Notes: generated from the sequence alone by a model not told the origin. A stretch of 64,000 nucleotides of DNA from an uncultured Chloroflexia bacterium (GCA_963712745.1 CAVQJC010000011.1:256001-320000), one strand, 5' to 3'; counted from the stretch's first letter, positions 46,235 to 63,857 are shown. Program-made: numbers and translations.

Positions 46235-46325
46235 GACAGGTGCCGCCACCACATGCCGGATCGGCCGACCTTTCGGACCGGTCCAGGTGTCTCAACCCCT
46301 TCACAGGGACAAGGAGGAAGTGGAC

Positions 46326-47424: not shown

Positions 47425-47445
47425 TCGGCTAGGACTCGCACTTCG

Positions 47446-48993
47446 ATGACCGCTTTCGAGGCGCAGGGCGTCCGCAAGACCTATGGAGGCGTCGTGGCAC
47501 TCCACGGCGCCGACTTCGCCGTCCGCCCGGGCAGCGTGCACGCGCTGCTCGGGGAGAATGGGGCGGGGAAGTCCACGCTGGTCAAGGTCATGACCGGCGC
47601 CGTCCGGCCCGACTCGGGCACCGTGCGCCTCGATGGCAACGAGGTCAGCTTCAGGAACACCGCCGACGCCGTCTCGCACGGCGTCGCGGTCGTGGCCCAG
47701 GAGCTGAGCCTCTTTCCCCATCTCGACATCCTGGCCAACCTGTTCCCCATGCGTGAGCCGCGACGCGGACCTCTGGTCGATCGCAAACGCATGCTACAGC
47801 TGGCTACCCCGGTACTCGAACGACTCGGCGTCGAGCACCATCCTTCCACTCGCATCAGTGAACTCTCACTCGCCGATCGCCAGCTGGTCGAGATCGCCAA
47901 GGCACTCGTCGCTGAGCCGCGCGTTCTGCTGCTCGATGAGCCCACTTCAGCGCTGGAGACCGGTGACAGCGAACGGCTGCTGGGCATCCTGCGCGTGCTG
48001 CGCGAGCGCGACGTCGCTGTCGTCTACGTCTCGCACATCCTCGAGGAGGTCATGCGCCTCTGCGACGAAGTGACCGTGCTGCGTGACGGCTACGTCGTCA
48101 TGAGTGGCGAGCAGCTCGCTGAGCTTAACCTTGAGACCATCGTCGCCGCCATGCTGGGGAAGGACGACGAGAGGGTGTCGAAGGGGCCGGGGGTCGATGT
48201 GGGCGTCCCGGCCATCAAGGCCAGCCCGCCACTGACCGCCGATGCCACTCCGGCCGAGCTGGTGCTCGATGGCGTCAGCTCGAAAGCGGGCCTGAACGAC
48301 GTGAGCTTGCGGGTCGCGGCTGGCGAGGTCGTCGGACTCGCCGGCCTCCAGGGGTCCGGCCCCGGGGCCGTGCTCAGCGCGATCGCCGGGATATCGGACA
48401 TCAGCGCCGGTGAGATCCGCCTGCCCGGCGAGCAGGTACGCCCGACCTCCTTCCGCCAGGCCATCGACCGCGGGGTGGCTTTCGTCTCTGGCGACCGGCG
48501 CCGGTTGGGGCTCATGCTCGACAAGCCCATCTGGGAGAACATCGTCCAGGTCCGCACCATGGGCATGGCCCGCGACGGCATGCTGTTGCGAACCGGACAG
48601 CTGCGTGAACGTGCGGCCAAGTTGGCACAGGAGCTCGGCGTGAGAACGCCGTCGGTCACCATCAACGCCGGCAATCTCTCTGGTGGCAACCAACAGAAGG
48701 TCGTCATCGCCAAGTGGATGGACTCCGACCCGACCACGTTCTTGCTCGACGACCCCACCCGTGGCGTCGATGTCGGCGCCCGACAGGAGATCAATGCGCT
48801 CTTGCGCACCGCAGCGGCCGGAGGCGCCGTGGTCATGTTCCTGTCCACAGACCTCGAGGAGCTGGCCACCGGCTGCGACCGCGTCCTCGTCTTCTATCGG
48901 GGCTCGATCTGTGCCGAACTGAGTGGCCCAGGGCTGACCGCGCCGGCGCTGCTGCAGCTCATGAATACCGGCACCGTCGAGGAGGCTGCTTGA
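47446..48993 (+). CDS. Sugar ABC ATP-binding protein
   Basis: GENGAGKS, LDEPT, LSGGNQQKV, DDPTRGVDVG. Confidence 0.95.
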   Translation: MTAFEAQGVRKTYGGVVALHGADFAVRPGSVHALLGENGAGKSTLVKVMTGAVRPDSGTVRLDGNEVSFRNTADAVSHGVAVVAQELSLFPHLDILANLFPMREPRRGPLVDRKRMLQLATPVLERLGVEHHPSTRISELSLADRQLVEIAKALVAEPRVLLLDEPTSALETGDSERLLGILRVLRERDVAVVYVSHILEEVMRLCDEVTVLRDGYVVMSGEQLAELNLETIVAAMLGKDDERVSKGPGVDVGVPAIKASPPLTADATPAELVLDGVSSKAGLNDVSLRVAAGEVVGLAGLQGSGPGAVLSAIAGISDISAGEIRLPGEQVRPTSFRQAIDRGVAFVSGDRRRLGLMLDKPIWENIVQVRTMGMARDGMLLRTGQLRERAAKLAQELGVRTPSVTINAGNLSGGNQQKVVIAKWMDSDPTTFLLDDPTRGVDVGARQEINALLRTAAAGGAVVMFLSTDLEELATGCDRVLVFYRGSICAELSGPGLTAPALLQLMNTGTVEEAA

Positions 48994-48994
48994 G

Positions 48995-49891
48995 ATGGCA
49001 TCACCTTGGCCACTGACCACCGGGCCATTGCCCGAGATCCAGCTCCGCGATCACGGTGTACGCACCCGTGCGGGCGCGATCTACTCTGTGCTTGAGGGCT
49101 ATCGTCCACTTCGCCTGGATCTCTACCTACCGCCAGTGACGCGAGCTCCGGCACCGGTGGTCGTGTGGATCCACGGCGGGGCGTTCATGCACGGTGACCG
49201 GACCGCGTTGCCGCCACTGCTCGAGCAGGAGCGCCTGTTCACGCGGCTGCCGCTGGCCGGCTATGCGGTGGCCTCGATCGAGTATCGCCTGAGCGGCGAG
49301 GCGATCTTTCCGGCTCAGCTCGAGGACGTGCAGGCCGGCATCCGCTGGCTGCGCGCTCGGGCCCACGAGCTTGAGATCGACCCTGCGCGCATGGCCGCTT
49401 GGGGTGAGTCAGCCGGTGGCCACCTGGCAGCCTTCGCTGGAGTCGCCGGTCGCCTCGACGCGACCGATGACGACGTGGAGTTCGCCGAACAGCCCACGAA
49501 CGTCTCGGCCGTCGTGGACTGGTATGGGCCGACCGACTTCTCATCGATGGACCGGCAGGCAGGCGAGATCTCACGCATGAATCACGACGACCCCAATTCG
49601 CCGGAGTCGCGGCTCATCGGAGCCCCGGTCCAGGAACGTCTCGACCTCGTAGAGCGCGCGGACCCGGCGATGCGTGCTACGGCTGCGACTCCGCCGTTCC
49701 TGGTCATGCATGGCACCCGGGATGGGCTGGTGCCCTTTGGCCAGAGCCAGCACCTAGTGAGCCGGCTGAACGAGCTCGGTGTTTCCGTGGAGTTCCGCCC
49801 GGTCGAAGGCGCCGATCACGTCTTCGAGGGCTTCGAGAAGGGGGGTGTTTTGGTAGACGAGGTGGTCGACTTCCTCGAACGCACTCTGTGA
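48995..49891 (+). CDS. HSL/BD-FAE-like alpha/beta esterase
   Basis: LDLYLP, IHGGAF, YRLS, GESAGG, HGTRDGLVP, GADH. Confidence 0.9.
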   Translation: MASPWPLTTGPLPEIQLRDHGVRTRAGAIYSVLEGYRPLRLDLYLPPVTRAPAPVVVWIHGGAFMHGDRTALPPLLEQERLFTRLPLAGYAVASIEYRLSGEAIFPAQLEDVQAGIRWLRARAHELEIDPARMAAWGESAGGHLAAFAGVAGRLDATDDDVEFAEQPTNVSAVVDWYGPTDFSSMDRQAGEISRMNHDDPNSPESRLIGAPVQERLDLVERADPAMRATAATPPFLVMHGTRDGLVPFGQSQHLVSRLNELGVSVEFRPVEGADHVFEGFEKGGVLVDEVVDFLERTL

Positions 49892-50034
49892 CCCGGGACT
49901 GAACCGGGTAGCAACCGACCGTCGCACCTCCGCGGACGGTCGAGGGGCATCGACCTCATCGCCGCAGCGAACGCGTCACGCGACAGGGCATATCCCGCGT
50001 GCGTGCCTGTTCGACTTGCGCGCCAACGACACTG

Positions 50035-51003
50035 ATGAGCGCACCAAACACCCGCACCGACACCACCGGCGTGGCCATCGTCTTCGGGGCAGCGGCGGCG
50101 CTGGGCACCCTCGGCGTCATCTCCAACCTGGCCTACGACGCCGGTATGTCGGCCGCGGTCTTCACGGCCCTGCGCGCGGCGCTCGGGACGGTGATCCTGG
50201 GCACGCTGGTACTGCTTCACCTCCAGCCCAGCACCAGCATCCGAGCACTGCCACGGCGCGAGAAGCGCCTGTTCCTCATCGCCATCGTGACGAACGGCTC
50301 CATGAACCTGTTGCTCTTCGCGGGCTTCGAGGTGATGACGGTGGCCCTGGTCATGACGGTCTTCTACACGTACCCCTTGATGGTGATGGTCGTCCAGGCT
50401 GTGCGCGGTCAGGAGCTGGTCACGCCGACACGCGTAGCCGCTCTGATCGTGGCCATGGCTGGACTCCTGCTGGTCATCGGCAGCCAGGTCGGACCGGACG
50501 CACACGTCTCGCTGGCAGGCATCGCGCTGGGGCTGGCTGCGGCGATGTGCCAAGCGGCCTACCTGGTCGTGTCTCGCGACGGCTATCCCTCCGTGCCCGC
50601 GGTGCAGGCAACCTCGTTGGTGCTCGTCGGCGGCGTGCTCATTTCAGGCTCCGCCGCGATCCTCACGGGCGGGGTCGGGTCGGTCAGCACGTGGGCCTCG
50701 GAGCCGGTCGCCTGGCTGGCCGTGATCGTGGCGGGAACGCTCGGTGCTGCCATCCCCAAGGTCATGCTGCTGGTGGGCGTCCGCCGTATCGGCGGCACAC
50801 GCACAGCCACGGTCATGCTCTCCGAGCCGGTGATGGCTGCCGCCTTCGCCGCCGTCGCATTGGGCCAGGAGGTGACCGTGGCTGAGGTCATCGGCGGGGC
50901 GGCGATCCTCCTGGGTGCTGCGCTGGTGCAGCGTCCATCAAGGCGCGACGCCGAAGCCCCCGGTCCGCCCGGGGCCGAGAGTGCCTGGGCCCCTCACGAG
51001 TGA
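50035..51003 (+). CDS. DMT/EamA family transporter
   Basis: About 10 TM segments in two EamA repeats; YTYP, EPV motifs. Confidence 0.9.
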   Translation: MSAPNTRTDTTGVAIVFGAAAALGTLGVISNLAYDAGMSAAVFTALRAALGTVILGTLVLLHLQPSTSIRALPRREKRLFLIAIVTNGSMNLLLFAGFEVMTVALVMTVFYTYPLMVMVVQAVRGQELVTPTRVAALIVAMAGLLLVIGSQVGPDAHVSLAGIALGLAAAMCQAAYLVVSRDGYPSVPAVQATSLVLVGGVLISGSAAILTGGVGSVSTWASEPVAWLAVIVAGTLGAAIPKVMLLVGVRRIGGTRTATVMLSEPVMAAAFAAVALGQEVTVAEVIGGAAILLGAALVQRPSRRDAEAPGPPGAESAWAPHE

Positions 51004-51252: not shown

Positions 51253-53352
51253 TCAGGTCTCTGCGAACAGATGTCTGGAGATCACGTGGTCCTGATACTC
51301 AGGCGACAGATCACAGAAGTAGCCGCTCCAGCCCCAGACCCGAACGATGAGGTCACGGTGGTCCTCGGGATGCGCCTTGGCCTCGATGAGCTTGCTCGCG
51401 CTCAGCGCGTTCAGCTGCAGTTGCTGGCCGCCGAGCTGGGCGAACGTGCGCACGAGCGTCGCGACCTTGCCGATCGAGCCCTCGCCCCGGAAGACCGAGT
51501 CGGAGAGCTCCAGCGTGATAGGGCCACCGTTGCAGATGCGACCGTAGTCGAGCTTGGAGTAGGACTGCAGGACGCTGATCGGGCCCCGCAGCCGGGTCCC
51601 TGGCGTGGGCGCAAGGTTTGCGCCGAATGGATCCCCCCGCCGGCGTCCGTCCGCTGTCGGACCGACGACGGGCTCAGGCAGCGGCCCGTCGCTGCGCCCC
51701 CGTGCGAGCCACAGGTAGTACATGGCCGTACCAGTGCCCGGGCGGACCACCAGCCCAGACCGATCGAGCTCCGCCTCGCAGGCGTCCGCCAGCCAGTCGT
51801 AGAGCTTCACGAGCAAGTCATCCACGAGCGGCTCATTCAGGCCAACGTGAGGACTCTCATTGGCCAGCCGGTTCCGGAGCGCCTCGTGACCGACGAAGTC
51901 ATCATCGAGCGCACGGAGCACGTCTGCCGGCTCCGTGTCCGCCAGCTCGAAGACGTGCCGCTGGATCGCTGCGAGCGAGTCGGCCGCGCTCGCAGCGGCC
52001 GCGCCGTGGATACCGAGATTGCGGTACCTCGCCCCGCGGCCGTGATCGACACCGCGTTCCAGAGCGTTGGTCATGAGGACGGAGTACCAGGGCGCGGGCG
52101 CCCAGAGGAGTCGTTCATATGGAGTTGTCCGCTCGCGGACCTGAAGGGCGATCTGCTCTCTGGTCAGGTCGAGGATGTCCTCGAAGGAAGCACCCGCATC
52201 CAGCCCCTCACGGATGGCATGGTCGGCCGCGGCCGGGAACGACACGGCGCCGATGTTGCCGACATCCATGCCACGACCCGGGATGATGAACTCCCAGCAC
52301 GCAGCCACGGTGTAGTCGCGCGCATCCTCGAGGTCGTAGCCATGGCTCGCAAGGGCGGGGATGACGACATCATCGTTGGCGTACTGGGGGAAGCCAAGGC
52401 CCTTTCGTGTGAGCTCGGTGGCGAGCTCCAGAAGGGACTGGTCGGTAGCGGCGTTGATACGCAGGTTGACCTTGGGGTCGATAAGCCCGACATCCCGGGC
52501 CACGCGAAGAGCCATCCAAGTCAGTGGATTGACTGCGGAGTCACCAGCCGGCGTGGTGCCACCGAGCGTCATCGACTGACCGTTGTCTCCCTGCTGGATA
52601 CCGGGATAGAGGTCGGAATCCCGATTGAGGGCGATGAAGAACTCGGCCAGCAGTTCCTCGGCGTCGGCTTCATCGAGGCGGTCCGATCCAAGGTCGGCCG
52701 ACAGGTACGGCCAGAGGTACTGATCCAGACGGCCAAGCCCGACATGATGGTGTCCCGACAGCCAGACGATCGCCTGGAGGAAGCGCAGCGACTGCAGGGC
52801 TTCGTGGAAGGTTCGTGCCCCGTGCGCCGGCACATGCTCCAGTACCCGGGCCACCTCTTCCTTGCCCAGACGACGTGCCTCCGCCGCGTACCTGCCAGCC
52901 AGTGCGATGACGGCGTCGACGGTCTCGACTGCCGCATCGGTGAACTCGATCGCGTCATCGTCGCCGACGGCCACAGCTCGCGCGCGGGTCTCCAAGGCGA
53001 CTCGGCGCCGCCCGGCAAGGCCCTGTCCGAGGGCCATGGCCCAGTCGGCACAGACGTTGTTGATGACCCCACCCTCGTGCAGGGTCCGACCCTCAGTCAG
53101 GGCCGCGAGGTCCGAGGTCGTATAGACGTCCGGGATGTCACGGAGGGTCCGGGTGAAGACGATGCGTTCTTCGGGCTCGATGACGACCCGTTCCGCTTCA
53201 CACATGCGCCTTGTGAGCCGGGCTCGCCGCATCGGCCAGGAGAGACCCTGGCCATCGCACTCGCTGATGAGCTCTGGGGAGGCGCTTTGCCGGAAGCGCA
53301 CGAAGTACCCGTCGCGCGTCCGCGCGCGCAGTCCTGTCAGTCTCTCGTTCAT
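51253..53352 (-). CDS. Glycyl radical enzyme (PFL-like superfamily), uncharacterised, 699 aa
   Basis: TFHEALQ, GRLDQYLWPY, AACWE Cys loop, TADGR, QLQLN, DLIVRVWGWS glycyl loop; ATGA overlap with the activase gene. Confidence 0.92.
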   Translation of the reverse strand: MNERLTGLRARTRDGYFVRFRQSASPELISECDGQGLSWPMRRARLTRRMCEAERVVIEPEERIVFTRTLRDIPDVYTTSDLAALTEGRTLHEGGVINNVCADWAMALGQGLAGRRRVALETRARAVAVGDDDAIEFTDAAVETVDAVIALAGRYAAEARRLGKEEVARVLEHVPAHGARTFHEALQSLRFLQAIVWLSGHHHVGLGRLDQYLWPYLSADLGSDRLDEADAEELLAEFFIALNRDSDLYPGIQQGDNGQSMTLGGTTPAGDSAVNPLTWMALRVARDVGLIDPKVNLRINAATDQSLLELATELTRKGLGFPQYANDDVVIPALASHGYDLEDARDYTVAACWEFIIPGRGMDVGNIGAVSFPAAADHAIREGLDAGASFEDILDLTREQIALQVRERTTPYERLLWAPAPWYSVLMTNALERGVDHGRGARYRNLGIHGAAAASAADSLAAIQRHVFELADTEPADVLRALDDDFVGHEALRNRLANESPHVGLNEPLVDDLLVKLYDWLADACEAELDRSGLVVRPGTGTAMYYLWLARGRSDGPLPEPVVGPTADGRRRGDPFGANLAPTPGTRLRGPISVLQSYSKLDYGRICNGGPITLELSDSVFRGEGSIGKVATLVRTFAQLGGQQLQLNALSASKLIEAKAHPEDHRDLIVRVWGWSGYFCDLSPEYQDHVISRHLFAET

Positions 53353-54104
53353 GCGACTCGAACCTCGATTCCCTCGCGCCTGAATGGCTCCAGGAGCGCG
53401 TTCGGCTGTTGATCCTCGGCGAATCCGGGGCTGAAGGTCATTCCACAGGCGGCGTACTTCGCCCCGGCTGCCCGGTTGTACGGAAGCAGCTGGACTTCGA
53501 CCAGGGTGGGCGTCGTCGTGAGCCACCGGGCGATGGCATCGAGGTTGTCCCTTGTGTCGGTCACGCCCGGCACGAGCGGGACCCGCGCTACGAACGGTCG
53601 TGAAAGCCGCTCCAGCAGCGCCACGTTCCTGAGGATCTGCCCGTTCTCCTGTCCCGTCCAGCGTCGATGGGCATGCGGGTCGATGAGCTTGAGGTCGAGG
53701 AACAGGAGGTCGCAGCGTCCGGCCACGGAACAGAAGCTGTCGGCGTCCGCGTATCCCGAGGTGTCGAGCACGACGTGCGTGTCACCGAGCAGGTCGATGA
53801 CGTCGGCTACGAAGCCTGCCTGCATGAGGGGCTCCCCGCCGGAGAACGTGAAGCCGCCTCCGCCCGCGGCCAGGATGTCGACCTGCCCGTTCAGCAGGCC
53901 GGCCAGCTCCTCTGCCTCGTAGCTGCGTCCCACCGTGCGCTCGCCTGCTGGTGAGCGCATCACTTGTGGGGCCATCTCCAGGCCCTCCGGGTTGTGGCAC
54001 CAGGTGCAGCGAAGCGGGCAGCCCTTCATGAACACGGTGGTACGGATACCAGGCCCGTCATGGACCGTGAACTCGCGGATGTCGAAGACGATGCCCTGAC
54101 TCAT
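53349..54104 (-). CDS. Glycyl-radical enzyme activating protein (radical SAM)
   Basis: HDGPGIRTTVFMKGCPLRCTWCHNPE, FSGGEP, DTSG, DLK, LLPYN; no auxiliary ferredoxin insert. Confidence 0.93.
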   Translation of the reverse strand: MSQGIVFDIREFTVHDGPGIRTTVFMKGCPLRCTWCHNPEGLEMAPQVMRSPAGERTVGRSYEAEELAGLLNGQVDILAAGGGGFTFSGGEPLMQAGFVADVIDLLGDTHVVLDTSGYADADSFCSVAGRCDLLFLDLKLIDPHAHRRWTGQENGQILRNVALLERLSRPFVARVPLVPGVTDTRDNLDAIARWLTTTPTLVEVQLLPYNRAAGAKYAACGMTFSPGFAEDQQPNALLEPFRREGIEVRVA

Positions 54105-54135
54105 GGTGTGCGATCCCCCGGGAGGTGTGGCCCAG

Positions 54136-55734
54136 TCACGCGTCTGCTCCGGCGGATCCGTTCGTGTCGCCCACGTTCCTGTCCGGCAGCATCAAGGTCA
54201 GGAGCGACTGCTCGGTGGCCTCATCGCGTGCGACCTCGGCCGAGATCGAACCCGCGCGCATCACGTAGATGCGATCGCTCATGCTGATGATCTCAGGCAG
54301 GTCGGAGGAGATCATGAGGACCGCTCCGCCCCGGTCGGCGATGGCTTCCATGAGCTGGTAGAGCGCATAGCGCGCCGAGACGTCTACGCCGCGGGTAGGT
54401 TCATCGAGGACGTAGACGAGCCGGTCGCGAGCCAACCACTTGCCGATCGCCACGCGCTGCTGATTGCCGCCGCTCAGGGTGAACGCTGGCTGGCGCACCG
54501 TGCGGGCCACGATGCTCAGCTCCTCCACCAGCGAGCTTGCCAGTCCTTCCTCCCGACCGGGGCTGACGAGCGGCCCCGGGCCCAGGCGCGGCCACTCCGT
54601 GATGGCCAGGTTGCGCACGATCGGTAGCGACAGGATGACGCCCTGGTCCTTGCGGTTCTCGGGGACGAAGGCGAATCCGGCGTCGAGACGACGGCGCATC
54701 GGCCACGACGTGACGTCAACTCCGTTGAGGAGCACCGAGCCTGACTCCGCCGGGTCCGCCCCCACGATGACGCGGGCCAGCTCAGTCCTGCCGGCGCCGA
54801 CCAGTCCGGCGACACCGACGATCTCACCCCGTCTGACCGTGATCGAGACAGCTGCCGGAGCCCCGACCGGCAGCAGGTCCCGGGTCTCCAGGGCGATGTC
54901 ACCCGGCGTCGACCGACCACGCTGGTAGACCGAGTCGAGATGGCGGCCAACCATCCGCTCGACGATCTCGTCCTTGCTGGTCTCGCTGGTTCGAAGTGTT
55001 CCCGTGGAGCGACCATCCTTCAGGACCGAGACCCGGTCAGAGATGGTGAAGACCTCGTCGAGTCGATGCGTGACGAAGAGGATGCCTAATCCCTCCGAGC
55101 GCAGCCGTCGCAGCAGTTCGAAGAGTCGCTCCGTCTCGAAACGGCTGAGGCTGGCCGTGGGTTCATCAAGGATGAGGATGCGCGAGCGTTCGTTCAGCGC
55201 CCGCGCGATCTCCACCAGCTGCTGCTGCGACGTCGAGAGTCGCTCGACCGGGGTGTCCGGATCGATGGCCACGCTGAGCGTGGCGATGGCGTCGGTCGCC
55301 TGCCGCCGCATCTCGCCCTTGTCCAGGCGGCGTCCCCGACGCAACTCCCGACCCAGGAACATGTTCTCCACGACCGTCAGGTGTGGCGCCAGGCTGAACT
55401 CCTGCCAGATGACCGCGATGCCCTCCTTGCGCACCCGGGAGATCGTGGTCTCCCCGCGGTAGCGGCCCATCACATGCAGGCTCCCGCCCTCGTAGGGGAG
55501 GGCCCCACCGAGGATCTTGATCAGCGTCGACTTGCCGGCGCCGTTCTCGCCTACGAGCGCGTGGACCTCGCCCGCTCGCAGCTCGAGGGAGGCATCCGCC
55601 AACAGCAGCACATCCGTGCCCCGGATCGGCCGACCTTCGTCGTCGTACGCGAACTTCTGCACGTGTTGGGCGTCAAGCAGGACGGTCTCTGCAGTCTCTT
55701 GAGTCGCCGCAGCGCCTTCTCCCACGGTCGTCAC
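54136..55734 (-). CDS. Sugar ABC ATP-binding protein
   Basis: GENGAGKS, LDEPT, LSGGNQQRV, DEPTRGVDV. Confidence 0.95.
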   Translation of the reverse strand: MTTVGEGAAATQETAETVLLDAQHVQKFAYDDEGRPIRGTDVLLLADASLELRAGEVHALVGENGAGKSTLIKILGGALPYEGGSLHVMGRYRGETTISRVRKEGIAVIWQEFSLAPHLTVVENMFLGRELRRGRRLDKGEMRRQATDAIATLSVAIDPDTPVERLSTSQQQLVEIARALNERSRILILDEPTASLSRFETERLFELLRRLRSEGLGILFVTHRLDEVFTISDRVSVLKDGRSTGTLRTSETSKDEIVERMVGRHLDSVYQRGRSTPGDIALETRDLLPVGAPAAVSITVRRGEIVGVAGLVGAGRTELARVIVGADPAESGSVLLNGVDVTSWPMRRRLDAGFAFVPENRKDQGVILSLPIVRNLAITEWPRLGPGPLVSPGREEGLASSLVEELSIVARTVRQPAFTLSGGNQQRVAIGKWLARDRLVYVLDEPTRGVDVSARYALYQLMEAIADRGGAVLMISSDLPEIISMSDRIYVMRAGSISAEVARDEATEQSLLTLMLPDRNVGDTNGSAGADA

Positions 55735-56771
55735 GTCCGTTCGCCCAGGTATCGACTACGCGCGGCGTCGATGACCAGTGATGTGACGATGAGCAGGCCC
55801 ATCACCGCCTGGTAGAGGAGTGGCGTGATGTTGAGCAGGACGATGCAGTTGCCGATGGTGCGGATGATGATGGCGCCGATGATCACCCCTACCACGGTGC
55901 CGCGGCCGCCGAAGAGGCTGGTGCCGCCGACGACCGCAGCAGTGATGGTCTCGAAGGTCGTGTTGAAGCCGCCGAGCGTCGGCACGCCGATCTGCACACG
56001 GGAGGTGAGCATCACTGCCGCCAGGGCGGCCATCCCGCTCCCGATGGCGAAGCAGGTCACGACGATCCTGGGGACGCGGATGCCGGAGAGGCCGGCGGTC
56101 ACGCGGTTGTAGCCGACAGCTACGACCGAGCGGCCGAACGTCGAGCGGTTGAGCACGATCCAGGCGAGAGCAGCCACTACTGCCGCCAAGACCACGAGAT
56201 AGGGGATCCCGAAGAGGAATCCGGTCTGCAGACCGACGAACAGGTCGTCGGCCGGCATCGAGAGCATGCTGCCCGCCGAGATCATCTGCGCGATGGCGTA
56301 GGCGATGTAGAAGCTGCCCAGGGTCGTGATGAAGGCCGGGATACGGACCCACTGGACGAGGACGCCGTTGAACAGACCGAAGGCGACGCCTGTCCCGAGG
56401 GCCACTGTAAGCGACAAGGCAAAGTTGCCAGTCTCGATCATGACCGTCACGAGGACGACCGATGTCAGGCCGTACACCGCGCCCACCGACAGGTCGATGC
56501 CGCCGATAAGCAGTACGAACAGGATGCCGATCGCCGCGACCGAGAGGTCAGAAGCCTGACGCAGGACATTGCGGATGTTGTCGAGGCTCCCGAAGTTCGG
56601 TACGAACAGGGCCGCCAGGATCCACATCACGATGAGGAGCCCCAACAGGCCCAAGGTCGGGTTCCGGCTGATCCGATCCCACATCGCGGCCAGGCGACCT
56701 CGCGAGGTCGCCGCGGCGGGCTCGGGGGTGGTCCGGGGCCCGCCTGTCACGGTCCTCTCGGGATCGCTCAT
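55731..56771 (-). CDS. Sugar ABC permease
   Basis: GIDLSVG, PAFITTLG, ITAAVVGGTSLFGGRG. Confidence 0.93.
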   Translation of the reverse strand: MSDPERTVTGGPRTTPEPAAATSRGRLAAMWDRISRNPTLGLLGLLIVMWILAALFVPNFGSLDNIRNVLRQASDLSVAAIGILFVLLIGGIDLSVGAVYGLTSVVLVTVMIETGNFALSLTVALGTGVAFGLFNGVLVQWVRIPAFITTLGSFYIAYAIAQMISAGSMLSMPADDLFVGLQTGFLFGIPYLVVLAAVVAALAWIVLNRSTFGRSVVAVGYNRVTAGLSGIRVPRIVVTCFAIGSGMAALAAVMLTSRVQIGVPTLGGFNTTFETITAAVVGGTSLFGGRGTVVGVIIGAIIIRTIGNCIVLLNITPLLYQAVMGLLIVTSLVIDAARSRYLGERT

Positions 56772-57759
56772 GTGCTGCGGACGCCCCGGGCGCGCACGAC
56801 TGCCCTGCTCAGGGCATCACGAAGGACCGGACCCTGGACCGTCACGAGCACCGCCAGGATGATGAGCATGCCCGTGACGAGGTCCTGCATGAACGGTTGC
56901 ACACCCTGCAGGTTCAGGATGTTGCGGATCGCGACCAGGAAGACGGCACCCGCGCCGGCGGCCCAGAGATGTCCGCGGCCGCCGAAGAGGTCGACTCCTC
57001 CGATGACGCAAGCGGCCACAGCGGACAGCGTGAACGGTTCCCCCTGCAGCGGGCTGGCCGTTCCCAGTCGCGCGGCCAGCATCGTTCCGGCCGTTGCGGC
57101 CAGCAGCCCGGACACGACATAGGCACTTGACAGGATGCGGAGGACCGGGACACCGGATAGGCGGGCAACGGCCAGGTTGTCTCCCGTCGCTCGCAGGTGC
57201 ACGCCCCAGCTCGTCATGCGCCAGACAACCTCCAGCAGGACGAGGACGGTGACTGCCAAGACGACCAGGTAGGGGATCCCGAGGACGCCATCGTTACCGA
57301 GCGACACCAACTCGGGCGGGAGGAGCGGGCGACCGACCAGGTCGGCCAGATAGAGGGCCAGGCCGGCGGCGATGCCCAGCGTTCCAAAGGTAGCGATGAA
57401 CGGCGGCAGCTTGAGGCGGGAGACGATGACGGCATTGATGGCTCCGAACGCCACGCCCGCCGCCAGGCCGGCGATCACGGCCAGCGGCCAGGCTACGCCG
57501 ATGCTCACGAGCGCGACCTCCAGCACGCCCACGAGAGACATCACGCCACCGATCGACAGATCGATACCGCCGGTGACGATGACGAGGGTCATGCCGAACG
57601 CCGCCACCGACAGGATCGCTGCCTGGGACACGACGTTCTCGAGGTTGGGGAGCGTCGCGAAGTAGGGCACGAACTGGCCCACGAGCAGCACGCGCCACGG
57701 CGATCAGCAGCAACGGCAGCGATCGCGCGTGGCAGTCGGTCCCTCTGGCGGCTGGGCAT
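56768..57759 (-). CDS. Sugar ABC permease; two apparent +1 insertions near the N-terminus (~57720, ~57693)
   Basis: GIDLSIG, PPFIATFG, VIGGVDLFGGRG; GGAGG RBS and ATG 57759; removing two bases gives MPSRQRDRLPRAILPLLLIAVAVLLVGQF. Confidence 0.85.
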
Positions 57760-57780
57760 CCCCAGGGCCTCCGCTGAAGA

Positions 57781-57811
57781 GCTGGCGCACCCCCGTGCGG
57801 GGTGCGTCAGC
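57781..57811 (-). terminator. Intercistronic stem-loop after the SBP gene
   Basis: GCTGGCGCACCCC / GGGGTGCGTCAGC arms with one imperfect pair. Confidence 0.6.
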
Positions 57812-57831
57812 GCACTTGGACTGGGTGGACC

Positions 57832-58800
57832 CTAGAAGGCCTTCTCCATGGCCTCTTCGGCGTTGTCGATCGTCACCGTGGTGGTGCCTGAATCGATGTA
57901 CTTCTCGAGTGAGCCGGGCTCGATCTCACCGTTCGCGATGCCCACAGCGAACTCTGCCGCCATGGAGCCCATGGCCATCGGGTCCTGGGTGTTGTCAGCC
58001 AGGAGCTTGCCGTCGAGGACGCCCTGGATGCCGACCGTGGAACCGTCGATGGCGAGGACCGCCACGTCGGTCTTGCCTGCCCCGGCGAGTGCCTGGAGGA
58101 TGCCGTCGACCATGACGTCACTGGCCGAAAGGACGGCCTGGAGGTCGGGGTTGGCGGTCAGGATGTTCTCCATCGCGGCCAATGCCATGGCGTTGTCCCA
58201 TTCCCCGGTGGCAGACGCCACAGGCGTGATCCCGCCCGAGGCCAGGCCCTCGTTGAAGCCGGTGAGGCGGTCGTCGCCGGCAACCGAGCCGGGTGCGCCC
58301 TCGATGATGGCGACCTTGAGCTCGGGATCGGGCATCGCCGTGACGAGATACGTCGCCAACTCGCGCCCGGCATTCACGTTGTCGGTCGCGATGAGGGTCT
58401 CGTACAGCTCTTCGTTGCCGGCCGCGATGGGCTGGTCGACCAGGATGACCGGGACGCCGGCATCCTTGGCCTTCTGCAGCGCCGGCAGGACCGCCGAACC
58501 GTCGAGCGGGCTCACGATGATGCCGTCGACCTGCTGCGTGACGAGGTCTTCCAGCTGGCTGGACTGGCTGGCCACAGCGGTCTGCCCACCAGCGACCAGC
58601 AGCTGGACCGTACCGCCCAGCTCCTCGACCTTGTCCGTTGCCGCCTGCACCCAGGCGGCCTGGAACGGATCGTTGGTGATGGTCTTGACGGACAGTCCGA
58701 TGACCGGGCCGTCGTCCTGGGCGACCGCGCCCGCGGGCACCATCGCCACAACTAGTGCTGCTGCCGCAATGACAGCTGAGCTGACACCAAGACGTCGCAT
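57832..58800 (-). CDS. RbsB-like sugar ABC substrate-binding protein
   Basis: Signal peptide ending AVA-QD; NDPF, VDGII, AGVPVILVD, DN, R..GF, DG; GGAGA RBS. Confidence 0.93.
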   Translation of the reverse strand: MRRLGVSSAVIAAAALVVAMVPAGAVAQDDGPVIGLSVKTITNDPFQAAWVQAATDKVEELGGTVQLLVAGGQTAVASQSSQLEDLVTQQVDGIIVSPLDGSAVLPALQKAKDAGVPVILVDQPIAAGNEELYETLIATDNVNAGRELATYLVTAMPDPELKVAIIEGAPGSVAGDDRLTGFNEGLASGGITPVASATGEWDNAMALAAMENILTANPDLQAVLSASDVMVDGILQALAGAGKTDVAVLAIDGSTVGIQGVLDGKLLADNTQDPMAMGSMAAEFAVGIANGEIEPGSLEKYIDSGTTTVTIDNAEEAMEKAF

Positions 58801-58994
58801 GAGTGATTCTCCGTTCTTGTGGTCTTTCGGCCACACTTCTGTCTTCGCCGTGGATGCCTCGGATGCCGTTGACTGGGTCCTGGGCGCCGATATCAGCGCC
58901 CGCCGCCGGCTCGGTTCATCCGTTACCATCCGGTGGTCTCGTTCGTAGTGGCCCGGTTCGTCACCCCCCTCCGCCTGCAGACTGTGATGAGTTC

Positions 58995-60497
58995 CTAGAC
59001 GGCACCGGCAAGATGCCAGTAGGCGTTGCTCCACTGCACTTCCTTGCGGAAGCGGCGAGCCGTCGTGTCAGCGTCGATGGCGACCAGCTCGACCCCGACC
59101 ATCTCGGCGAAGTCCTCGATGACCTCGAGACCGACCGCCTGCGAGTAGGCCGTGTGGTGCGGGCCGCCCGCCAACAGCCACGACTCGGCCGCGGTGGTGA
59201 AGTCCGGCTTGGGCACCCACAACGCACGGGCCACAGGCAGCTTCGGCAGGTCCGAGGGCGGGTCGATGGCGTCGATCTCGTTGGCCACCAAGCGCAGGCG
59301 CGTGCCCATGTCGACCAGGCCCACCACGACACCCGGACCGGCGGCACCGCTGAACACGAGTCGCACCGGGTCCTCGCGTTCGCCCACGAAGAGGGGATGG
59401 ATCTCGCATGCGGGCGTGGCGGCGGCGATGGTCGGACAGATCTCCAGCATGTGCGCCCCGAGCACGGCCGTCTGCGGTGCCCCGAAGTCGTAGGTGTAGT
59501 CCTCCATGAACGAGACGCCACCCTCGAGCCCTTCGCTCATGGCCTTGACGATGCGCACGAGCATCGACGACTTCCAGTCGCCCTCCGCGCCGAAGCCATA
59601 GCCGTCGGCCATGAGCCGCTGGGCCCCGATGCCCGGCAGCTGCTTCAGGCCGCCCAGGTCCTCGAAGGTGTCGACGAAGGCCATCGAACCGCGCTCGGTG
59701 AGGAAGGCCCGCAGGCCCAGCTCGATGCGGGCCGCATCACGCAGGGACTCGCGCCGGTCGCCTCCGGGGCGCAGCTCGGGCACGACCTCGTAGCGCTCGT
59801 CGTACTCGGCGCAGAGTCGGTCGACCTCGGCATCGGCCACCTGGTCCACGACCGCGGCCAGCTCGTTGACCGGGTAGGTGTTGCAGGCGGCGCCGAAGCG
59901 GGCCTGCACCTCGACCTTGTCGCCGTCGGTGTCGGCCACCTCGCGCATGTTGTCGCCGAAGCGGATGACCCGCAGGTCGCGCGCCTCGTGGGCGCCGGCC
60001 GCCGCGCGCATCCAGGCGCCGACACGACGCTGCACGCCCGCCTCCTGCCAGTGGCCGGCCACGGTCTTGCGCGGTATCCGCAGGCGCGACACGATGTAGG
60101 CGAACTCGCGGTCGCCATGGGCCGACTGGTTGAGGTTCATGAACTCCATGTCGATGGCGCCGTAGGGCAGGTCGGCGCCGTACTGGGTATGCAGGTGCAG
60201 GAACGGCTTGGTCAACGCCTGCAGCCCCGCGATCCACATCTTGGCCGGGCTGAACGTGTGCATCCAGCCGATGACGCCGATGCAGCTGTCGTCCGCGGAG
60301 GCATCGATGCAGGCGCGGCGGATGCCATCAGGGTCGAGCAGCGTGGGTGTGTGAACGATCTCGACAGGGATGTCCGGAGCGGCCCCAAGGCCAGCGACGA
60401 TACGTGCTGATTGCTCGGCGACTTGCCGCCGAGTCTCCTCGCCGTAGTAGTGCAGGCTCCCCGTCAGGAAGATGATCCGCAGCCCGTCGAACGCCAT
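58995..60497 (-). CDS. araA: L-arabinose isomerase
   Basis: WMHTFSPAKMW, FMNLNQSAHGDREF, FGDNMR, FGAEGDWK, SFMEDYTY, GAHMLE, GGPHHT; GAGGAGG RBS. Confidence 0.96.
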   Translation of the reverse strand: MAFDGLRIIFLTGSLHYYGEETRRQVAEQSARIVAGLGAAPDIPVEIVHTPTLLDPDGIRRACIDASADDSCIGVIGWMHTFSPAKMWIAGLQALTKPFLHLHTQYGADLPYGAIDMEFMNLNQSAHGDREFAYIVSRLRIPRKTVAGHWQEAGVQRRVGAWMRAAAGAHEARDLRVIRFGDNMREVADTDGDKVEVQARFGAACNTYPVNELAAVVDQVADAEVDRLCAEYDERYEVVPELRPGGDRRESLRDAARIELGLRAFLTERGSMAFVDTFEDLGGLKQLPGIGAQRLMADGYGFGAEGDWKSSMLVRIVKAMSEGLEGGVSFMEDYTYDFGAPQTAVLGAHMLEICPTIAAATPACEIHPLFVGEREDPVRLVFSGAAGPGVVVGLVDMGTRLRLVANEIDAIDPPSDLPKLPVARALWVPKPDFTTAAESWLLAGGPHHTAYSQAVGLEVIEDFAEMVGVELVAIDADTTARRFRKEVQWSNAYWHLAGAV

Positions 60498-60541
60498 TCC
60501 GAACTTCCTCCTCGGCCTGGATGGGCCCAAGTCCCTATGAC

Positions 60542-60569
60542 TGCAAGCGATTGTATGCAAGCGCATGTG
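60542..60569. promoter_or_regulatory. Two abutting LacI-type operators
   Basis: TGCAAGCGATTGTA and TGCAAGCGCATGTG resemble the LacI-family TGxAAxCGxTTxCA pattern, between divergent araA and lacI. Confidence 0.7.
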
Positions 60570-60668
60570 CCAGCGTCAACCAGTACGCTGGAGCCCCATA
60601 GGCGTCAATGACACGACCCGATGCAGCCCGGCCGCTACGATGGGAGGCCGGAGGCACCAAGGACAGCC

Positions 60669-61781
60669 ATGACACGAGCCAAGCGGCGAGTTCACCCGAG
60701 TCCTGTCGACACCACGCCCGCCGTGTCCGCGAATGTCGCTGCGGGCGTGCCCACGATGCGTGACATCGCCAAGGCCACCAGCGTCTCGCAATCGACGGTG
60801 TCACGGATCCTGAGCGGCACTCCCACTGCCATCCCCATCGCGGAGGCGACACGCGAACGGGTCCTGGAGACGGCCAAGCGTCTCGGCTACAGACCCAACC
60901 CACTGGCGCGTGGACTGATGGGCGCACGGACCATGCTTCTCGGCGCCATCGTCCGAGACATCACCGACCCGAGCTTTCCAGCCATCATCGAGGCTGTCAC
61001 CACCGAAGCCGGCAGACACGGCTACAACGTCGTGCTGGGCCATGCCCGAGGGAGCGCAGGCGAAGCGGTCGAGCTCTGGGCCATCCTGGAATCGCGCCAC
61101 TGCGACGCGATCCTGTTGCTTGGTGACTTGAGCAATCAGCCGGCGCTCATCGAAGGCCTTGAGAGCACGCGCGAGCCGGTCGTGGCGCTCTGGCACGGCT
61201 CACGTTCTACCGTGATCCCGACCGTCAACGTCAACAACCGCAGCGCGATCACGACCCTGATGGAGCATCTCGCCTCGCTGGGGCACGAGCGCATCGCCTT
61301 CGTCGGCAGGAAGCAGTTGGGAGACATCGTAGAGCGTGGGGAGGCCTATGAGGCCTTCCTCGAGCGCCAAGGCTGGCAGATCAACCCGGAGTACATGCCA
61401 GACGCCATCAACGAGTACGAAGGCGGCATGGAGGCGCTGCATCGTCTGATGGATCTGGAGGAGCCCCCGACGGCCATCGTCGGCGCGACCGATGTCCTTG
61501 CCATCGGCCTGGTGCACGCGGCGCTCCAGCGGGGCCTCCGGGTGCCGGAGGATGTGTCGGTGACCGGTATCGACGACATCCCGGGGGCTCATGTGATCAT
61601 GCCGCCCCTGACGACGATGCGGATGCCCGTGCGGGCCATGGTCAAGGCCGCGATAGACATCGCCATCGGCTCGCTTGATCGAGAGTCCCACCCCGTGGTG
61701 GATGTCCACCCGGTGTTCGAGGCCGAACTCGTGGTTCGCGGTTCCACGGGGCCCCCACCTGATGCACCGACACGCGCATGA
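60669..61781 (+). CDS. LacI family regulator
   Basis: TMRDIAKATSVSQSTVSRIL, LGYRPNPLARGL, VPEDVSVTGIDD, PPLTT. Confidence 0.95.
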   Translation: MTRAKRRVHPSPVDTTPAVSANVAAGVPTMRDIAKATSVSQSTVSRILSGTPTAIPIAEATRERVLETAKRLGYRPNPLARGLMGARTMLLGAIVRDITDPSFPAIIEAVTTEAGRHGYNVVLGHARGSAGEAVELWAILESRHCDAILLLGDLSNQPALIEGLESTREPVVALWHGSRSTVIPTVNVNNRSAITTLMEHLASLGHERIAFVGRKQLGDIVERGEAYEAFLERQGWQINPEYMPDAINEYEGGMEALHRLMDLEEPPTAIVGATDVLAIGLVHAALQRGLRVPEDVSVTGIDDIPGAHVIMPPLTTMRMPVRAMVKAAIDIAIGSLDRESHPVVDVHPVFEAELVVRGSTGPPPDAPTRA

Positions 61782-62237: not shown

Positions 62238-63857
62238 GTGCCCGAGATCATCCATGGCATCGAACGCCGCCCGTTGGAGTCCGGCAAATCGCTGTTCGAT
62301 TATGCCGACGAGGTCTCGGTCGCCGTTCCCCAATCGTGTGGCCGCTCGGGCCGCTGCCGCGAGTGCGTGGTCGAGGTCCGCCAGGGCGGTGATGCCCTCT
62401 CGCCCCGCACCGAAGCGGAGGAGTACCTGCCCGCCGATTTCCGGCTTGCCTGCCAGGCGGAGATCGTCTCGCTCGACCACGACGTCGAGTTCGCCATCAT
62501 CCGCCGGCGCATGCATATCCTCGAGGAGGCCGGTGAGCCCATCACCGAGATCGACCCCGTCGTCACCACCACCGAGCACGCGGTGCTCTACGACGGCGTC
62601 ACGCTGGACCTGCGCCGCCAGCACGTGCTGGGCCTGGCCGTCGACGTGGGCACGACCACGGTCGTCTTCCGTCTCATCGACCTGACCGACGGCCACGTCG
62701 TGAGCGGCGGTGCCTTCGAGAACCCCCAGCGCTTTGGCGGCAGCGACGTGATGAGTCGCATCGGGTATGAGCGCGACCACCCCGGCACCTTGCGCAAGGC
62801 TCTCCGGCGTGCGCTCAACGCGGGCCTCAAGGACATCTACAAGGAGCTGAGCATCGACCGCCACGAGGTCTACGAGGCCATGGTCGTGGCCAACTCCACG
62901 ATGCGCGATCTCTTCTTCGACATCGACGTCCGGCCCATCGGCGAGATGCCCTACAAGTCGGTGACCGAGCTGGCCGTGCTCCGTGGCGAGACCGACTCCA
63001 CCTGGGTCAGCAAGCGCGCCTACGAGCTGGGCATCCTCATCCACCCGCAGGCCCGCGTGGTCGGTGCTCCGCTCATCGCCAGCCACGTGGGCGGGGATGT
63101 GGCGGCTGACCTGGTCGCTACCGACTTCGGCTCGGCGCCCGGCTCCAGCCTGCTCATCGACATCGGCACCAACACCGAGATCGTGGCCACCGACGGCAAG
63201 CACATCGTGGCCGCGTCGAGCCCGGCCGGTCCGGCCTTCGAGGGCGGCATGCTGCGCTTCGGCATGGCCGGCGCTGACGGCGCCATCGAGGCGGTCCACA
63301 TCAACGACGACGAGTTCGTCTACCAGGTCATCGGTGGCTACGAGCCCGAGGGCATCTGCGGCTCCGGCCTGGTCGACATCATCGCCGAGCTGCGCCGCCT
63401 CGAATGGATGAGCCCGGAGGGTCGCTTCATCCACGGCGGCAGCGAGTACGCCATCGCACCCCTGCGCGGCATCACCTTCTCGCGTTCCGACGCCAGCCAG
63501 CTGGCCCAGGCCAAGGCCTCCAACGCCTCGGGCCAGCGCATCCTGCTGCGGCGACTGGGCCTGGCCGCGGACGAGGTCGACCACATCTACCTCGCCGGCG
63601 GCTTCGCCAATGCCATCGACATCGAGAACGCCATCGCCATCGGCTTCCTGGCCCAGGTCCGGCCAGAGCGTGTGGAGCGGGTCGGCAACTCCGCCCTGCG
63701 TGGCGCCACCATGCTGCTGCTTTCACGTCGGCGGCGCGAGTCGCTGAGCGAGCTCATCGGCCGCATCGAACACGTCGAGCTGGAGACCGAACCCGATTTC
63801 TTCGACCTCTTCGTCGACGGCTGCCTCTTCCATCCCATCCCCACCGCCGCCGCATAG
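62238..63857 (+). CDS. ASKHA/DUF4445 reductive activator of corrinoid proteins (RACo/AcsV-like) with N-terminal 2Fe-2S domain
   Basis: CGRSGRCREC...RLACQ; AVDVGTTT, NPQRFGGSDVMSRI, VGGD, IDIGTNTE, AGPAFEG, GICGSG, AGGF, VGNSA. Confidence 0.9.
   Translation: MPEIIHGIERRPLESGKSLFDYADEVSVAVPQSCGRSGRCRECVVEVRQGGDALSPRTEAEEYLPADFRLACQAEIVSLDHDVEFAIIRRRMHILEEAGEPITEIDPVVTTTEHAVLYDGVTLDLRRQHVLGLAVDVGTTTVVFRLIDLTDGHVVSGGAFENPQRFGGSDVMSRIGYERDHPGTLRKALRRALNAGLKDIYKELSIDRHEVYEAMVVANSTMRDLFFDIDVRPIGEMPYKSVTELAVLRGETDSTWVSKRAYELGILIHPQARVVGAPLIASHVGGDVAADLVATDFGSAPGSSLLIDIGTNTEIVATDGKHIVAASSPAGPAFEGGMLRFGMAGADGAIEAVHINDDEFVYQVIGGYEPEGICGSGLVDIIAELRRLEWMSPEGRFIHGGSEYAIAPLRGITFSRSDASQLAQAKASNASGQRILLRRLGLAADEVDHIYLAGGFANAIDIENAIAIGFLAQVRPERVERVGNSALRGATMLLLSRRRRESLSELIGRIEHVELETEPDFFDLFVDGCLFHPIPTAAA

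Follow-up and report, generated by a model that had tools for sequence, protein, structure and literature searches.

The window analysed here is a stretch of 64,000 nucleotides from an uncultured Chloroflexia bacterium, and coordinates without a contig name refer to the whole of that stretch. On its minus strand, a co-oriented run of seven genes encodes L-arabinose isomerase (AraA), the binding protein, two permeases and ATPase of a CUT2-type sugar importer of the ATP-binding cassette (ABC) class, an activating enzyme (activase), and a glycyl radical enzyme (GRE) of 699 amino acids. This GRE is an uncharacterised member of a large and widespread clade with a conserved sugar context. The reading we favour, with a confidence somewhat short of even, is that it is a new sugar-acting, C-O-cleaving GRE that works on a modified arabino- or galacto-type sugar and feeds the arabinose and galactose routes. 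A wider form of this reading is possible but doubtful. The enzyme would then be the first GRE on free, unphosphorylated sugars of plant or algal cell walls, and by radical C-O scission it would open up, in the absence of oxygen, arabinose- or galactose-type monosaccharides that carry ether modifications (O-methylation or some other block). In the Anaerolineae a corrinoid sugar O-demethylase of a new kind would be encoded in the same operon, and in sediments and soils the two would together make up a widespread anaerobic route for methylated sugars of cell walls.

The GRE gene (51253..53352, minus strand) encodes a compact protein of the PFL2 type. Its membership of the GRE family is established by the domains PF02901 (E 2.6e-85) and PF01228 (E 8.5e-19), and by the motifs AACWEF (C352, E354) and RVWGWSGYF (G674). 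The first-pass annotation of this region, made from the DNA alone, had described a single Cys-x-Glu loop, and the read-out of the sequence confirms it as C352-W353-E354. An identity as pyruvate formate-lyase (PFL) was rejected, as the loop reads A-C-W-E with no Cys-Cys pair and the match to TIGR01255 reaches 39 bits against a cut-off of 994. In an alignment of 50 sequences C352, R671 and G674 are invariant, and so are the polar, family-specific residues Q253, D256, N257, Q259, R537, N608, T613 and E615. All 81 family sequences contain CWE, and 78 of them RVWGWSGYF; further stretches conserved in the family are QQGDNGQ, RPGTG.AMYY and NGGP.T.E. According to the accessible sections of a 2026 review (PMC13450708), a Cys-x-Glu (CXE) loop motif defines the 1,2-eliminases and isomerases among the GREs. 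The motif thus places the GRE in the CXE class and its predicted chemistry with the 1,2-eliminases and isomerases, which favours radical cleavage of a C-O bond.

All curated cut-offs for GRE classes are missed. The GRE scores 310 bits against TIGR01774 (PFL2-3 subfamily, cut-off 678), 254 against PRK09983 (PflD-type, 1109), 233 against the HypD equivalog (1100) and 223 against CutC (1050). For CutC, HypD, sulfopropanediol dehydratase (HpsG/HpfG), HPAD and indoleacetate decarboxylase taken together, scores of 121-234 bits stand against unmet cut-offs of 1000-1150. The closest solved relative by sequence is Escherichia coli PflD (E 5e-67), with 32% identity over 550 residues. Single-sequence AlphaFold gave a model with a mean local confidence (pLDDT) of only 40; it was replaced by an AF2 model from the 50-sequence alignment, with pLDDT 91.5 and a predicted template modelling score (pTM) of 0.92. 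In a Foldseek search of the PDB the AF2 model matches PFL2-type GRE structures with template modelling (TM) scores of 0.75-0.87, normalised to the model. Glycerol dehydratase, PflD, CutC, propanediol dehydratase and HypD match it about equally (TM 0.83-0.87, 21-26% identity), so that the fold assigns the protein to no single class of GRE. A search of the ESM Atlas returned unnamed glycine-radical clusters only.

Phylogenetic reconstruction gives the same picture. A FastTree phylogeny was calculated from 79 family members of at least 600 amino acids, shorter rows being left out, together with E. coli PflD, YbiW and PflB. The family forms one clade with 100% local support on a branch of 0.87, apart from PflD and YbiW. 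The suggestion that this GRE would not cluster with a characterised enzyme is therefore upheld by the phylogeny, by the missed equivalogs and by the 32% identity to PflD. The catalogue of characterised GREs, in those parts of PMC13450708 that are accessible, holds no such enzyme, and the same sections describe whole GRE clades without an assigned function. No paper in the full-text literature searched links a GRE to arabinose isomerase, methylated sugars or corrinoid systems.

Members of the clade are numerous, and their names are uninformative. The best 120 matches in a protein search are nearly all 693-724 amino acids long and 60-100% identical, plus some shorter fragments, and their records bear nothing more specific than labels of the type 'pyruvate formate lyase'. 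When one genome was scanned for each species, at least 599 pattern matches came up, at least 512 of which encode relatives; the best 80 were kept. These come from Chloroflexota, Planctomycetota, Verrucomicrobiota, Lentisphaerota, Kiritimatiellota, Acidobacteriota, Spirochaetota, Synergistota, Bacillota, Bacteroidota and a few others. The closest among the matches listed, at 77-83%, belong to metagenome-assembled genomes labelled Limnocylindrales-like or 'Chloroflexia'. The clade is compact, with members of about 695 amino acids and activases that mostly lack a ferredoxin domain.

The activase gene (53349..54104, minus strand) directly precedes the GRE gene, whose ATG overlaps the activase stop codon as ATGA. 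Its product, a radical S-adenosylmethionine (SAM) enzyme of 251 amino acids, exceeds the cut-off of TIGR02494 (204 bits against 174). The CX3CX2C motif lies at C29/C33/C36. Only three further cysteines are present, which indicates that the auxiliary ferredoxin-like domain is absent, and the motif CX2CX2CX3C is missing from 61 of 70 activases of the family. As far as the available text of PMC13450708 goes, the great majority of GRE activases contain a ferredoxin-like domain with eight cysteines, and activases made of the radical SAM domain only are confined to PFL-AE and class III RNR-AE, the activating enzymes of PFL and of class III ribonucleotide reductase. Given this restriction, the present pair is unusually minimal for a GRE of the CXE type. 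So small a GRE and activase may also be easier to handle in vitro.

The remaining genes of the run were identified from a listing of open reading frames (ORFs) and from Pfam and NCBIfam scans; the G+C content of the region is 65-70%. Upstream of the activase gene are the genes for a CUT2-type ATPase with two ABC domains (54136..55734), two BPD_transp_2 permeases (55731..56771 and 56768..57691) and a secreted Peripla_BP_4 binding protein (57832..58800), all on the minus strand. The permease ORFs overlap each other by 4 nt, and an overlap of the same size joins permease and ATPase ORFs. The best NCBIfam match of the ATPase is AraG (482 bits, below the cut-off of 689), and that of both permeases is AraH (177 and 158 bits, below cut-off). 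The binding protein is of the ribose-binding-protein type, its closest solved relatives being ribose-binding proteins, and its signal peptide MRRLGVSSAVIAAAALVVAMVPAGAVA begins at 58800. The importer thus has all its parts, and misses every substrate equivalog cut-off. The AraA gene, araA (58995..60497, minus strand), encodes 500 amino acids with the N-terminal (AraA_N), central and C-terminal domains all present and exceeds the cut-off of NF002795 (742 bits against 622). Its start at 60497 is preceded by GGAGGAAG. The permease ORF at 56768-57691, the first of the two to be transcribed, begins at position 43 of the AraH profile, and 140 nt with no listed start codon separate it from the binding-protein gene; the true start may be a rare start codon.

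Divergent from this run, on the plus strand, lies the gene of a LacI-family repressor. Its largest ORF spans 60621..61781; the helix-turn-helix of this ORF begins at its residue 45, and translation probably starts at 60669. Between the two a sequence scan found tandem LacI-type operator-like boxes, TGCAAGCGATTGTA and TGCAAGCGCATGT, 14 nt apart (60542..60568). They lie over a promoter-like site, TTGACG-18-TACAAT (60550..60579, minus strand), whose -10 box overlaps the first operator box. This sigma-70-like match (60579-60550) is the only one in 11.4 kb, where shuffled sequences gave a mean of 0.8. The extent of the seven minus-strand genes and of the divergent LacI gene, and the tandem operators between them, agree with the first-pass annotation. 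These features suggest that a LacI-type (AraR-like) repressor binds the two boxes over the promoter and that the run is one repressor-controlled operon of an arabinose regulon.

The Pfam and NCBIfam scans found no kinase, epimerase or microcompartment shell gene in the run, as the first-pass annotation had stated of araB, araD, other kinases and shell genes. On this absence it had built a model in which AraA makes L-ribulose (or D-tagatose) from imported L-arabinose (or D-galactose) and the GRE dehydrates or cleaves the unphosphorylated ketose, independently of AraB and AraD. The operon does unite araA, importer, activase and GRE with neither kinase nor epimerase, as that model would have it. 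The rest of the genome (4.2 Mb in 20 contigs, 84.6% complete) speaks against it. Contig C2:176529-182800 (locus L019) carries araB (plus strand; TIGR01234, 746 bits), a second araA (araA2, minus strand), an araD-like class II aldolase gene (plus strand) and a gene for an Fe-dependent alcohol dehydrogenase (plus strand). The tandem arrangement TGCAANCG-N6-TGCAANCG occurs only twice in the 4.2 Mb, counting both strands: at the araA promoter of the window and at C2:180465, in the divergent intergenic region between araA2 and araD. Because the tandem operator is found at these two sites only, the operon and araB/araD very probably share one repressor. The argument from missing AraB and AraD is thereby weakened: both genes lie elsewhere, very probably co-regulated with the araA of the window, which the first-pass annotation had itself named among the findings that would refute its model, and the need for a route free of AraB and AraD is removed. 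The product of AraA would most likely go to the AraB and AraD encoded on the other contig.

Several observations belong to this search of the genome. Single operator boxes number 203. Near-matches to the single box at C17:11680, C5:70565 and C5:109828 lie inside sulfatase or GGDEF genes and were taken as chance. An inverted version of the box occurs only on contig C13, as a perfect inverted repeat of GTGCAAACGAGTG at about 3330-3360; on this contig (8.4 kb, locus L145) there is also a near-copy of araB, equal to the C2 copy in profile score, which may be a strain variant or an assembly duplicate. The araA2 gene reads in two frames, which could reflect a frameshift or an assembly error. The only other GRE of the genome is a true PFL at C1:145880-147814.

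The relation between AraA and the GRE was followed in 25 genomes of the same genus (24 and this one), which are kin and hence not independent. Six have the GRE, and all six have at least two AraA loci. Five have GRE and araA on one contig, with one araA at a distance of 5.6-6.8 kb from the GRE; in G004, the sixth, the two are on different contigs. In the nine other genomes that have AraA, its locus is single and the GRE is absent. The GRE-linked copies were considered as a specialised AraA clade, and this was rejected: copies group by genome, each next to its counterpart in the same genome or a sister one, and the two AraA proteins of the present genome are 90% identical. The GRE-linked copies presumably catalyse the ordinary reaction. 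Ten GRE-bearing genomes from other phyla were also searched: four have an AraA that exceeds the cut-off, and in six none was found. Of five AraA-less genomes tested, only G044 encodes an epimerase of the AraD type that passes its cut-off. The GRE thus often has AraA as a partner, but AraA is not obligatory.

The absence of AraA from the six genomes argues against L-ribulose as a universal substrate and weakens the claim that L-ribulose from AraA is the general substrate of the GRE. An extra araA does accompany the GRE in every GRE-bearing genome of the genus (6 of 6), in keeping with the ketose route. That route is also at odds with loci that consist of a transporter of the major facilitator superfamily (MFS), GRE and activase only and have no isomerase, and with an Anaerolineae operon, described below, that joins the GRE with araA, kinase and AraD, where a competing branch would be odd. 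With araB and araD behind the same tandem operator as well, we consider this model rather unlikely.

Genomes that pair the GRE with no AraA raise another alternative. The GRE itself could take the C2 hydrogen from an imported free sugar, such as L-arabinofuranose, and break the C1-O bond of the ring, as YbiW and PflD do; the 2-ketose would result, and AraA could thus be replaced. Modules of transporter, LacI, GRE and activase in genomes without AraA would fit this, as would the AraD-type epimerase of G044. Two Anaerolineales loci, L041 and L053, have kinase and AraD, with a galactokinase gene (galK) after the GRE and no araA within 10 kb, and in L079 and L081 the GRE is followed directly by kinase and AraD. 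The ribose-binding-protein-like binding protein would presumably suit a furanose. By the same idea the GRE would repeat the work of AraA in the 12 loci that have both enzymes, and it offers no thermodynamic or obvious physiological gain over a metal-dependent isomerase. AraD over the cut-off is present in only one of the five AraA-less genomes tested. We hold this conversion to be unlikely.

The sugar context of the clade was examined in 81 loci, the best 80 relatives and the window. ORFs were clustered all-against-all over a reach of 10 kb, and clusters were named by Pfam and NCBIfam. Many of the loci are cut by contig ends, so that the counts are lower bounds, and related genomes are not independent samples. 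The activase is present in 66 of 81 loci (70 by clustering). Sugar transporters of any kind are found in 46 (CUT2 ABC in 37, sugar-porter MFS in 10, the latter with TIGR00879 at 372 bits over a cut-off of 238) and LacI in 29. The araA gene is found in 12 loci, at a median of 36 bp downstream of the GRE. AraD-type epimerases occur in 8 (NF005123, 341 bits over 251), FGGY kinases in 7, the glycoside hydrolase family GH127 in 7, galactokinases in 6 (TIGR00131, 283 bits over 227), and a 698-amino-acid protein partly similar to the arabinofuranosidase ArfA in 12 (167 bits, below cut-off). At least one of araA, AraD, FGGY kinase, GH127 or the GH51-like protein is present in 30 of the 81 loci, or 33 when galactokinase is counted. 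Immediately downstream of the GRE, three loci have galK and one has an aldose 1-epimerase gene. Unclustered neighbours are mostly other glycoside hydrolases.

Since araA occupies one to three places per genome, we reason that 12 adjacencies in 81 intervals of 20 kb are far above chance. In the FastTree phylogeny the adjacency appears in two separate subclades with different gene orders. The expected link of GRE homologues to araA and CUT2 genes is thus established as a conserved neighbourhood (12 and 37 of 81), and the core proposal of the first-pass annotation, a radical step without an assigned function wired to arabinose utilisation, is strengthened and made more general.

Where the neighbourhood is smallest, in loci of the Planctomycetota-Verrucomicrobiota-Chlamydiota (PVC) group, Acidobacteriota and Bacteroidota, it reduces to LacI, an MFS or ABC importer, activase and GRE, often with GH127 or the ArfA-like protein beside it. 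This minimal conserved module of monosaccharide importer, LacI, activase and GRE suggests that the imported sugar-like molecule is the substrate of the GRE. A rival reading makes the GRE an enzyme that dehydrates or splits small non-sugar molecules (ethylene glycol, 1,2-propanediol or some other by-product of fermentation, for instance) and is merely co-regulated with pentose use. The fold and motif are equally close to those of glycerol and propanediol dehydratases, and alcohol dehydrogenases accompany the system, Fe-dependent after araD on C2 and Zn-dependent in 9 of the 81 loci. The tight linkage to sugar importers in several phyla (46 of 81 loci) points the other way, and so do the polar family-specific invariant residues. 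No aldehyde dehydrogenase and phosphotransacylase set is present, nor is there any microcompartment linkage: the nearest shell genes, three BMC shell-protein matches at C11:71152-73791, lie about 234 kb from the GRE on the same contig. A role on a non-sugar substrate is quite improbable.

The fullest neighbourhood is a recurrent operon of Anaerolineae-type Chloroflexota. It begins with LacI, binding protein, ATPase and permease, followed by a gene on the opposite strand, and goes on with three genes for URO-D family methyltransferases, a corrinoid protein, activase, GRE, araA, an M24 prolidase-like gene, a Zn-dependent alcohol dehydrogenase, kinase and AraD. In five loci checked with the full run, the order is URO-D x3 (x4 in one), corrinoid protein, activase, GRE and araA, with gaps of mostly 10-100 bp; in one of the five, kinase and AraD stand before araA. 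Three or four divergent URO-D genes and the corrinoid protein gene lie directly upstream of activase and GRE in L025, L027, L032-L034, L036, L038, L044, L062, L075 and L079. URO-D family genes are present in 19 of the 81 loci (49 genes); corrinoid protein genes are present in 13, all within the URO-D-bearing Chloroflexota loci, and their products are MtgC/MtbC-like. The M24 prolidase-like gene is found in 5 loci. Two of the URO-D proteins, tested against solved structures, gave no match and one weak match.

The order methyltransferases, GRE, isomerase, kinase, epimerase in the Anaerolineae, together with galK or a mutarotase gene directly after the GRE elsewhere, suggests that the GRE step lies upstream of the ordinary arabinose and galactose routes. 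From this context and from the active-site motif we infer the substrate class, the bond cleaved and the position ahead of AraA. The substrate would be an imported, chemically modified arabino- or galacto-type sugar that is closed to the ordinary isomerase and kinase route; in the Anaerolineae it would probably first be O-demethylated by the co-operonic corrinoid methyltransferases. The activase would install the radical on G674, and a thiyl radical at C352 would abstract hydrogen from a hydroxyl-bearing carbon, with E354 deprotonating that hydroxyl. The neighbouring C-O bond would then break, in the manner of YbiW and PflD or of the diol dehydratases, the hydrogen would be returned to the product radical, and the product would enter the AraA, kinase and AraD route or the GalK route.

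The same Anaerolineae operon invites a reading with uronates. The GRE could carry out a radical decarboxylation or formate-lyase-type cleavage of D-galacturonate to L-arabinose or a 4-keto-pentose, the galacturonate being supplied in the Anaerolineae by corrinoid-dependent removal of a methyl ester. Methyl esters are chemically good methyl donors to Co(I), the stoichiometry fits (galacturonate to arabinose and CO2), and the Zn-dependent alcohol dehydrogenase of the operon could reduce the keto-pentose. Uronate genes are not conserved nearby, with one UxaC in 81 loci; the transporters are of the neutral-sugar type; and galactokinase would go unexplained. Within its accessible sections, PMC13450708 lists no GRE decarboxylase acting on non-aromatic acids. 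We regard this reading as very improbable.

Several points weigh against a sugar-acting, C-O-cleaving GRE upstream of AraA. In 48 of the 81 loci, many of them on short contigs, no gene of arabinose or galactose use lies inside the 10-kb reach. Methyltransferases accompany the GRE in Chloroflexota only, and the operon of the window does not have them. The lack of a specialised clade of GRE-linked AraA copies counts here too, as does the failure to find AraA in six of the ten genomes of other phyla. The substrate, the product and even the type of bond are inferred. Finally, the link to AraA and GalK is not closed mechanistically, as the known chemistry of 1,2-eliminases and isomerases yields deoxy-carbonyl products, and plain arabinose or galactose would arise only if the sugar were the leaving group.

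This last case is an alternative in itself. The GRE would abstract hydrogen from a small aglycone or ether partner and eliminate free L-arabinose or D-galactose; the partner could be the hydroxyproline (Hyp) of Hyp-O-arabinosides or -galactosides, attacked as by HypD, or a glycerol or other vicinal-hydroxy unit. A plain aldose would fit araA, galK or aldose 1-epimerase directly downstream. GH127 is the family of the Bifidobacterium enzyme for Hyp-linked beta-arabinooligosaccharides, and its presence in 7 of 81 loci would agree with such a substrate, as would the prolidase-like gene in 5; the Zn-dependent alcohol dehydrogenases of 9 loci could take the carbonyl co-product. Ribose-type CUT2 binding proteins and sugar-porter MFS proteins, on the other hand, are not known to carry glycosylated amino acids, and glycosides can be hydrolysed with no need of radicals. 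The HypD equivalog score is far below cut-off (233 bits against 1100), and no gene for handling pyrroline-5-carboxylate was seen in the loci. Release of the sugar as a leaving group is therefore improbable, and cleavage within a modified sugar is the reading retained here.

Other features of the window and genome are of interest beside these. A second CUT2 sugar ABC set lies on the plus strand (permease 45206-46234, binding protein 46188-47333, ATPase 47446-48993), followed directly by a gene for a BD-FAE family esterase (48995-49891) and then by an EamA transporter gene (49999-51003). The esterase, co-oriented with this monosaccharide importer (45206-49891), suggests that the imported sugar is esterified. 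The LacI gene is followed immediately, on the plus strand, by a gene for a RACo-type reductive activator of corrinoid proteins (62238-63857), with Fer2, Raco_middle and RACo_C_ter domains. It was considered as a link to corrinoid systems and set aside, as RACo was not found within 10 kb of the GRE in the 80 other loci and no URO-D gene follows it; the adjacency was treated as not conserved. The whole genome has 22 URO-D family and 8 B12-binding_2 matches, which indicate that the organism has many corrinoid methyltransferase systems, none of them in this operon.

DNA nearly identical to the operon is present in metagenome runs from estuary and sediment. Two metatranscriptome libraries gave short contigs with 0-1 differences on the GRE gene, the activase-GRE junction, the ATPase and permease genes and the araA-lacI region; parts of the operon outside this cover carry no information. 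One of these contigs spans the divergent intergenic region, so carry-over of DNA is possible, and the contigs are a weak hint that the operon is expressed.

In the accessible sections of PMC13450708 only two sugar-acting GREs are listed, both acting on phosphorylated anhydroalditols in gut bacteria. The clade described here spans at least 10 phyla of polysaccharide-degrading anaerobes and is consistently wired to sugar importers and to arabinose and galactose catabolism, and an unexpected link to corrinoid methyltransferases has been gained from its relatives. Identification of the substrate would add a new reaction to anaerobic carbohydrate degradation, and could account for the anoxic mineralisation of sugars that are methylated or blocked in some other way.

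Four known kinds of system can be set beside the operon. Enzymes of the MtaA/CmuA type in the URO-D family act with a corrinoid protein in O-demethylation. The operons of the Chloroflexota relatives share with such systems up to three or four URO-D genes and the MtgC/MtbC-like corrinoid protein. They differ in that these genes are not part of the operon in the window and in that the relatives' URO-D proteins are far from any solved one. No description of a corrinoid methyltransferase system coupled to a GRE and arabinose genes was found in the literature searched.

With the glycerol and propanediol dehydratases, CutC and HypD the GRE shares the CXE motif, the fold (TM 0.83-0.87) and the presumed abstraction of hydrogen next to a leaving group. 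It differs from them by an identity of only 21-26% in structural alignment, and by the lack of a microcompartment link and of a gene set for handling aldehydes. For CutC, HypD and the other curated GRE equivalogs, the cut-off is three to ten or more times the score reached.

YbiW and PflD come nearer. According to PMC13450708, in its accessible sections, they are GRE isomerases that open 1,5-anhydroglucitol-6-phosphate and 1,5-anhydromannitol-6-phosphate to 1-deoxyfructose-6-phosphate. The PFL2-type fold, Cys-x-Glu loop, sugar context and adjacent activase are common to both groups. The GRE of the window is about 65-110 amino acids shorter, however, and lacks an N-terminal segment of about 55 residues; its loop is CWE, whereas theirs is CVE or CIE; and the position of its family's invariant Glu615 is occupied by Lys in PflD and YbiW. 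It belongs to a separate clade, and its activase has no ferredoxin domain. The neighbours differ as well. In E. coli, frw genes of the phosphotransferase system (PTS) stand beside pflD, and ybiV and fsaA beside ybiW; no genes for a PTS, a sugar phosphatase or a fructose-6-phosphate aldolase were found in the window or the 80 related loci, where free-sugar importers of the ABC or MFS type and araA or galK stand near the GRE.

The regulon as a whole resembles the classical arabinose regulons, such as araBAD and araFGH of E. coli or the AraR regulon of Bacillus. As in these, AraA exceeds its cut-off, the ABC components resemble AraG and AraH, the repressor is LacI-type and its operators come in pairs, and araB and araD share that operator type. 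The GRE and its activase have no counterpart in the classical regulons, and here araA is duplicated, with one copy placed in the GRE operon.

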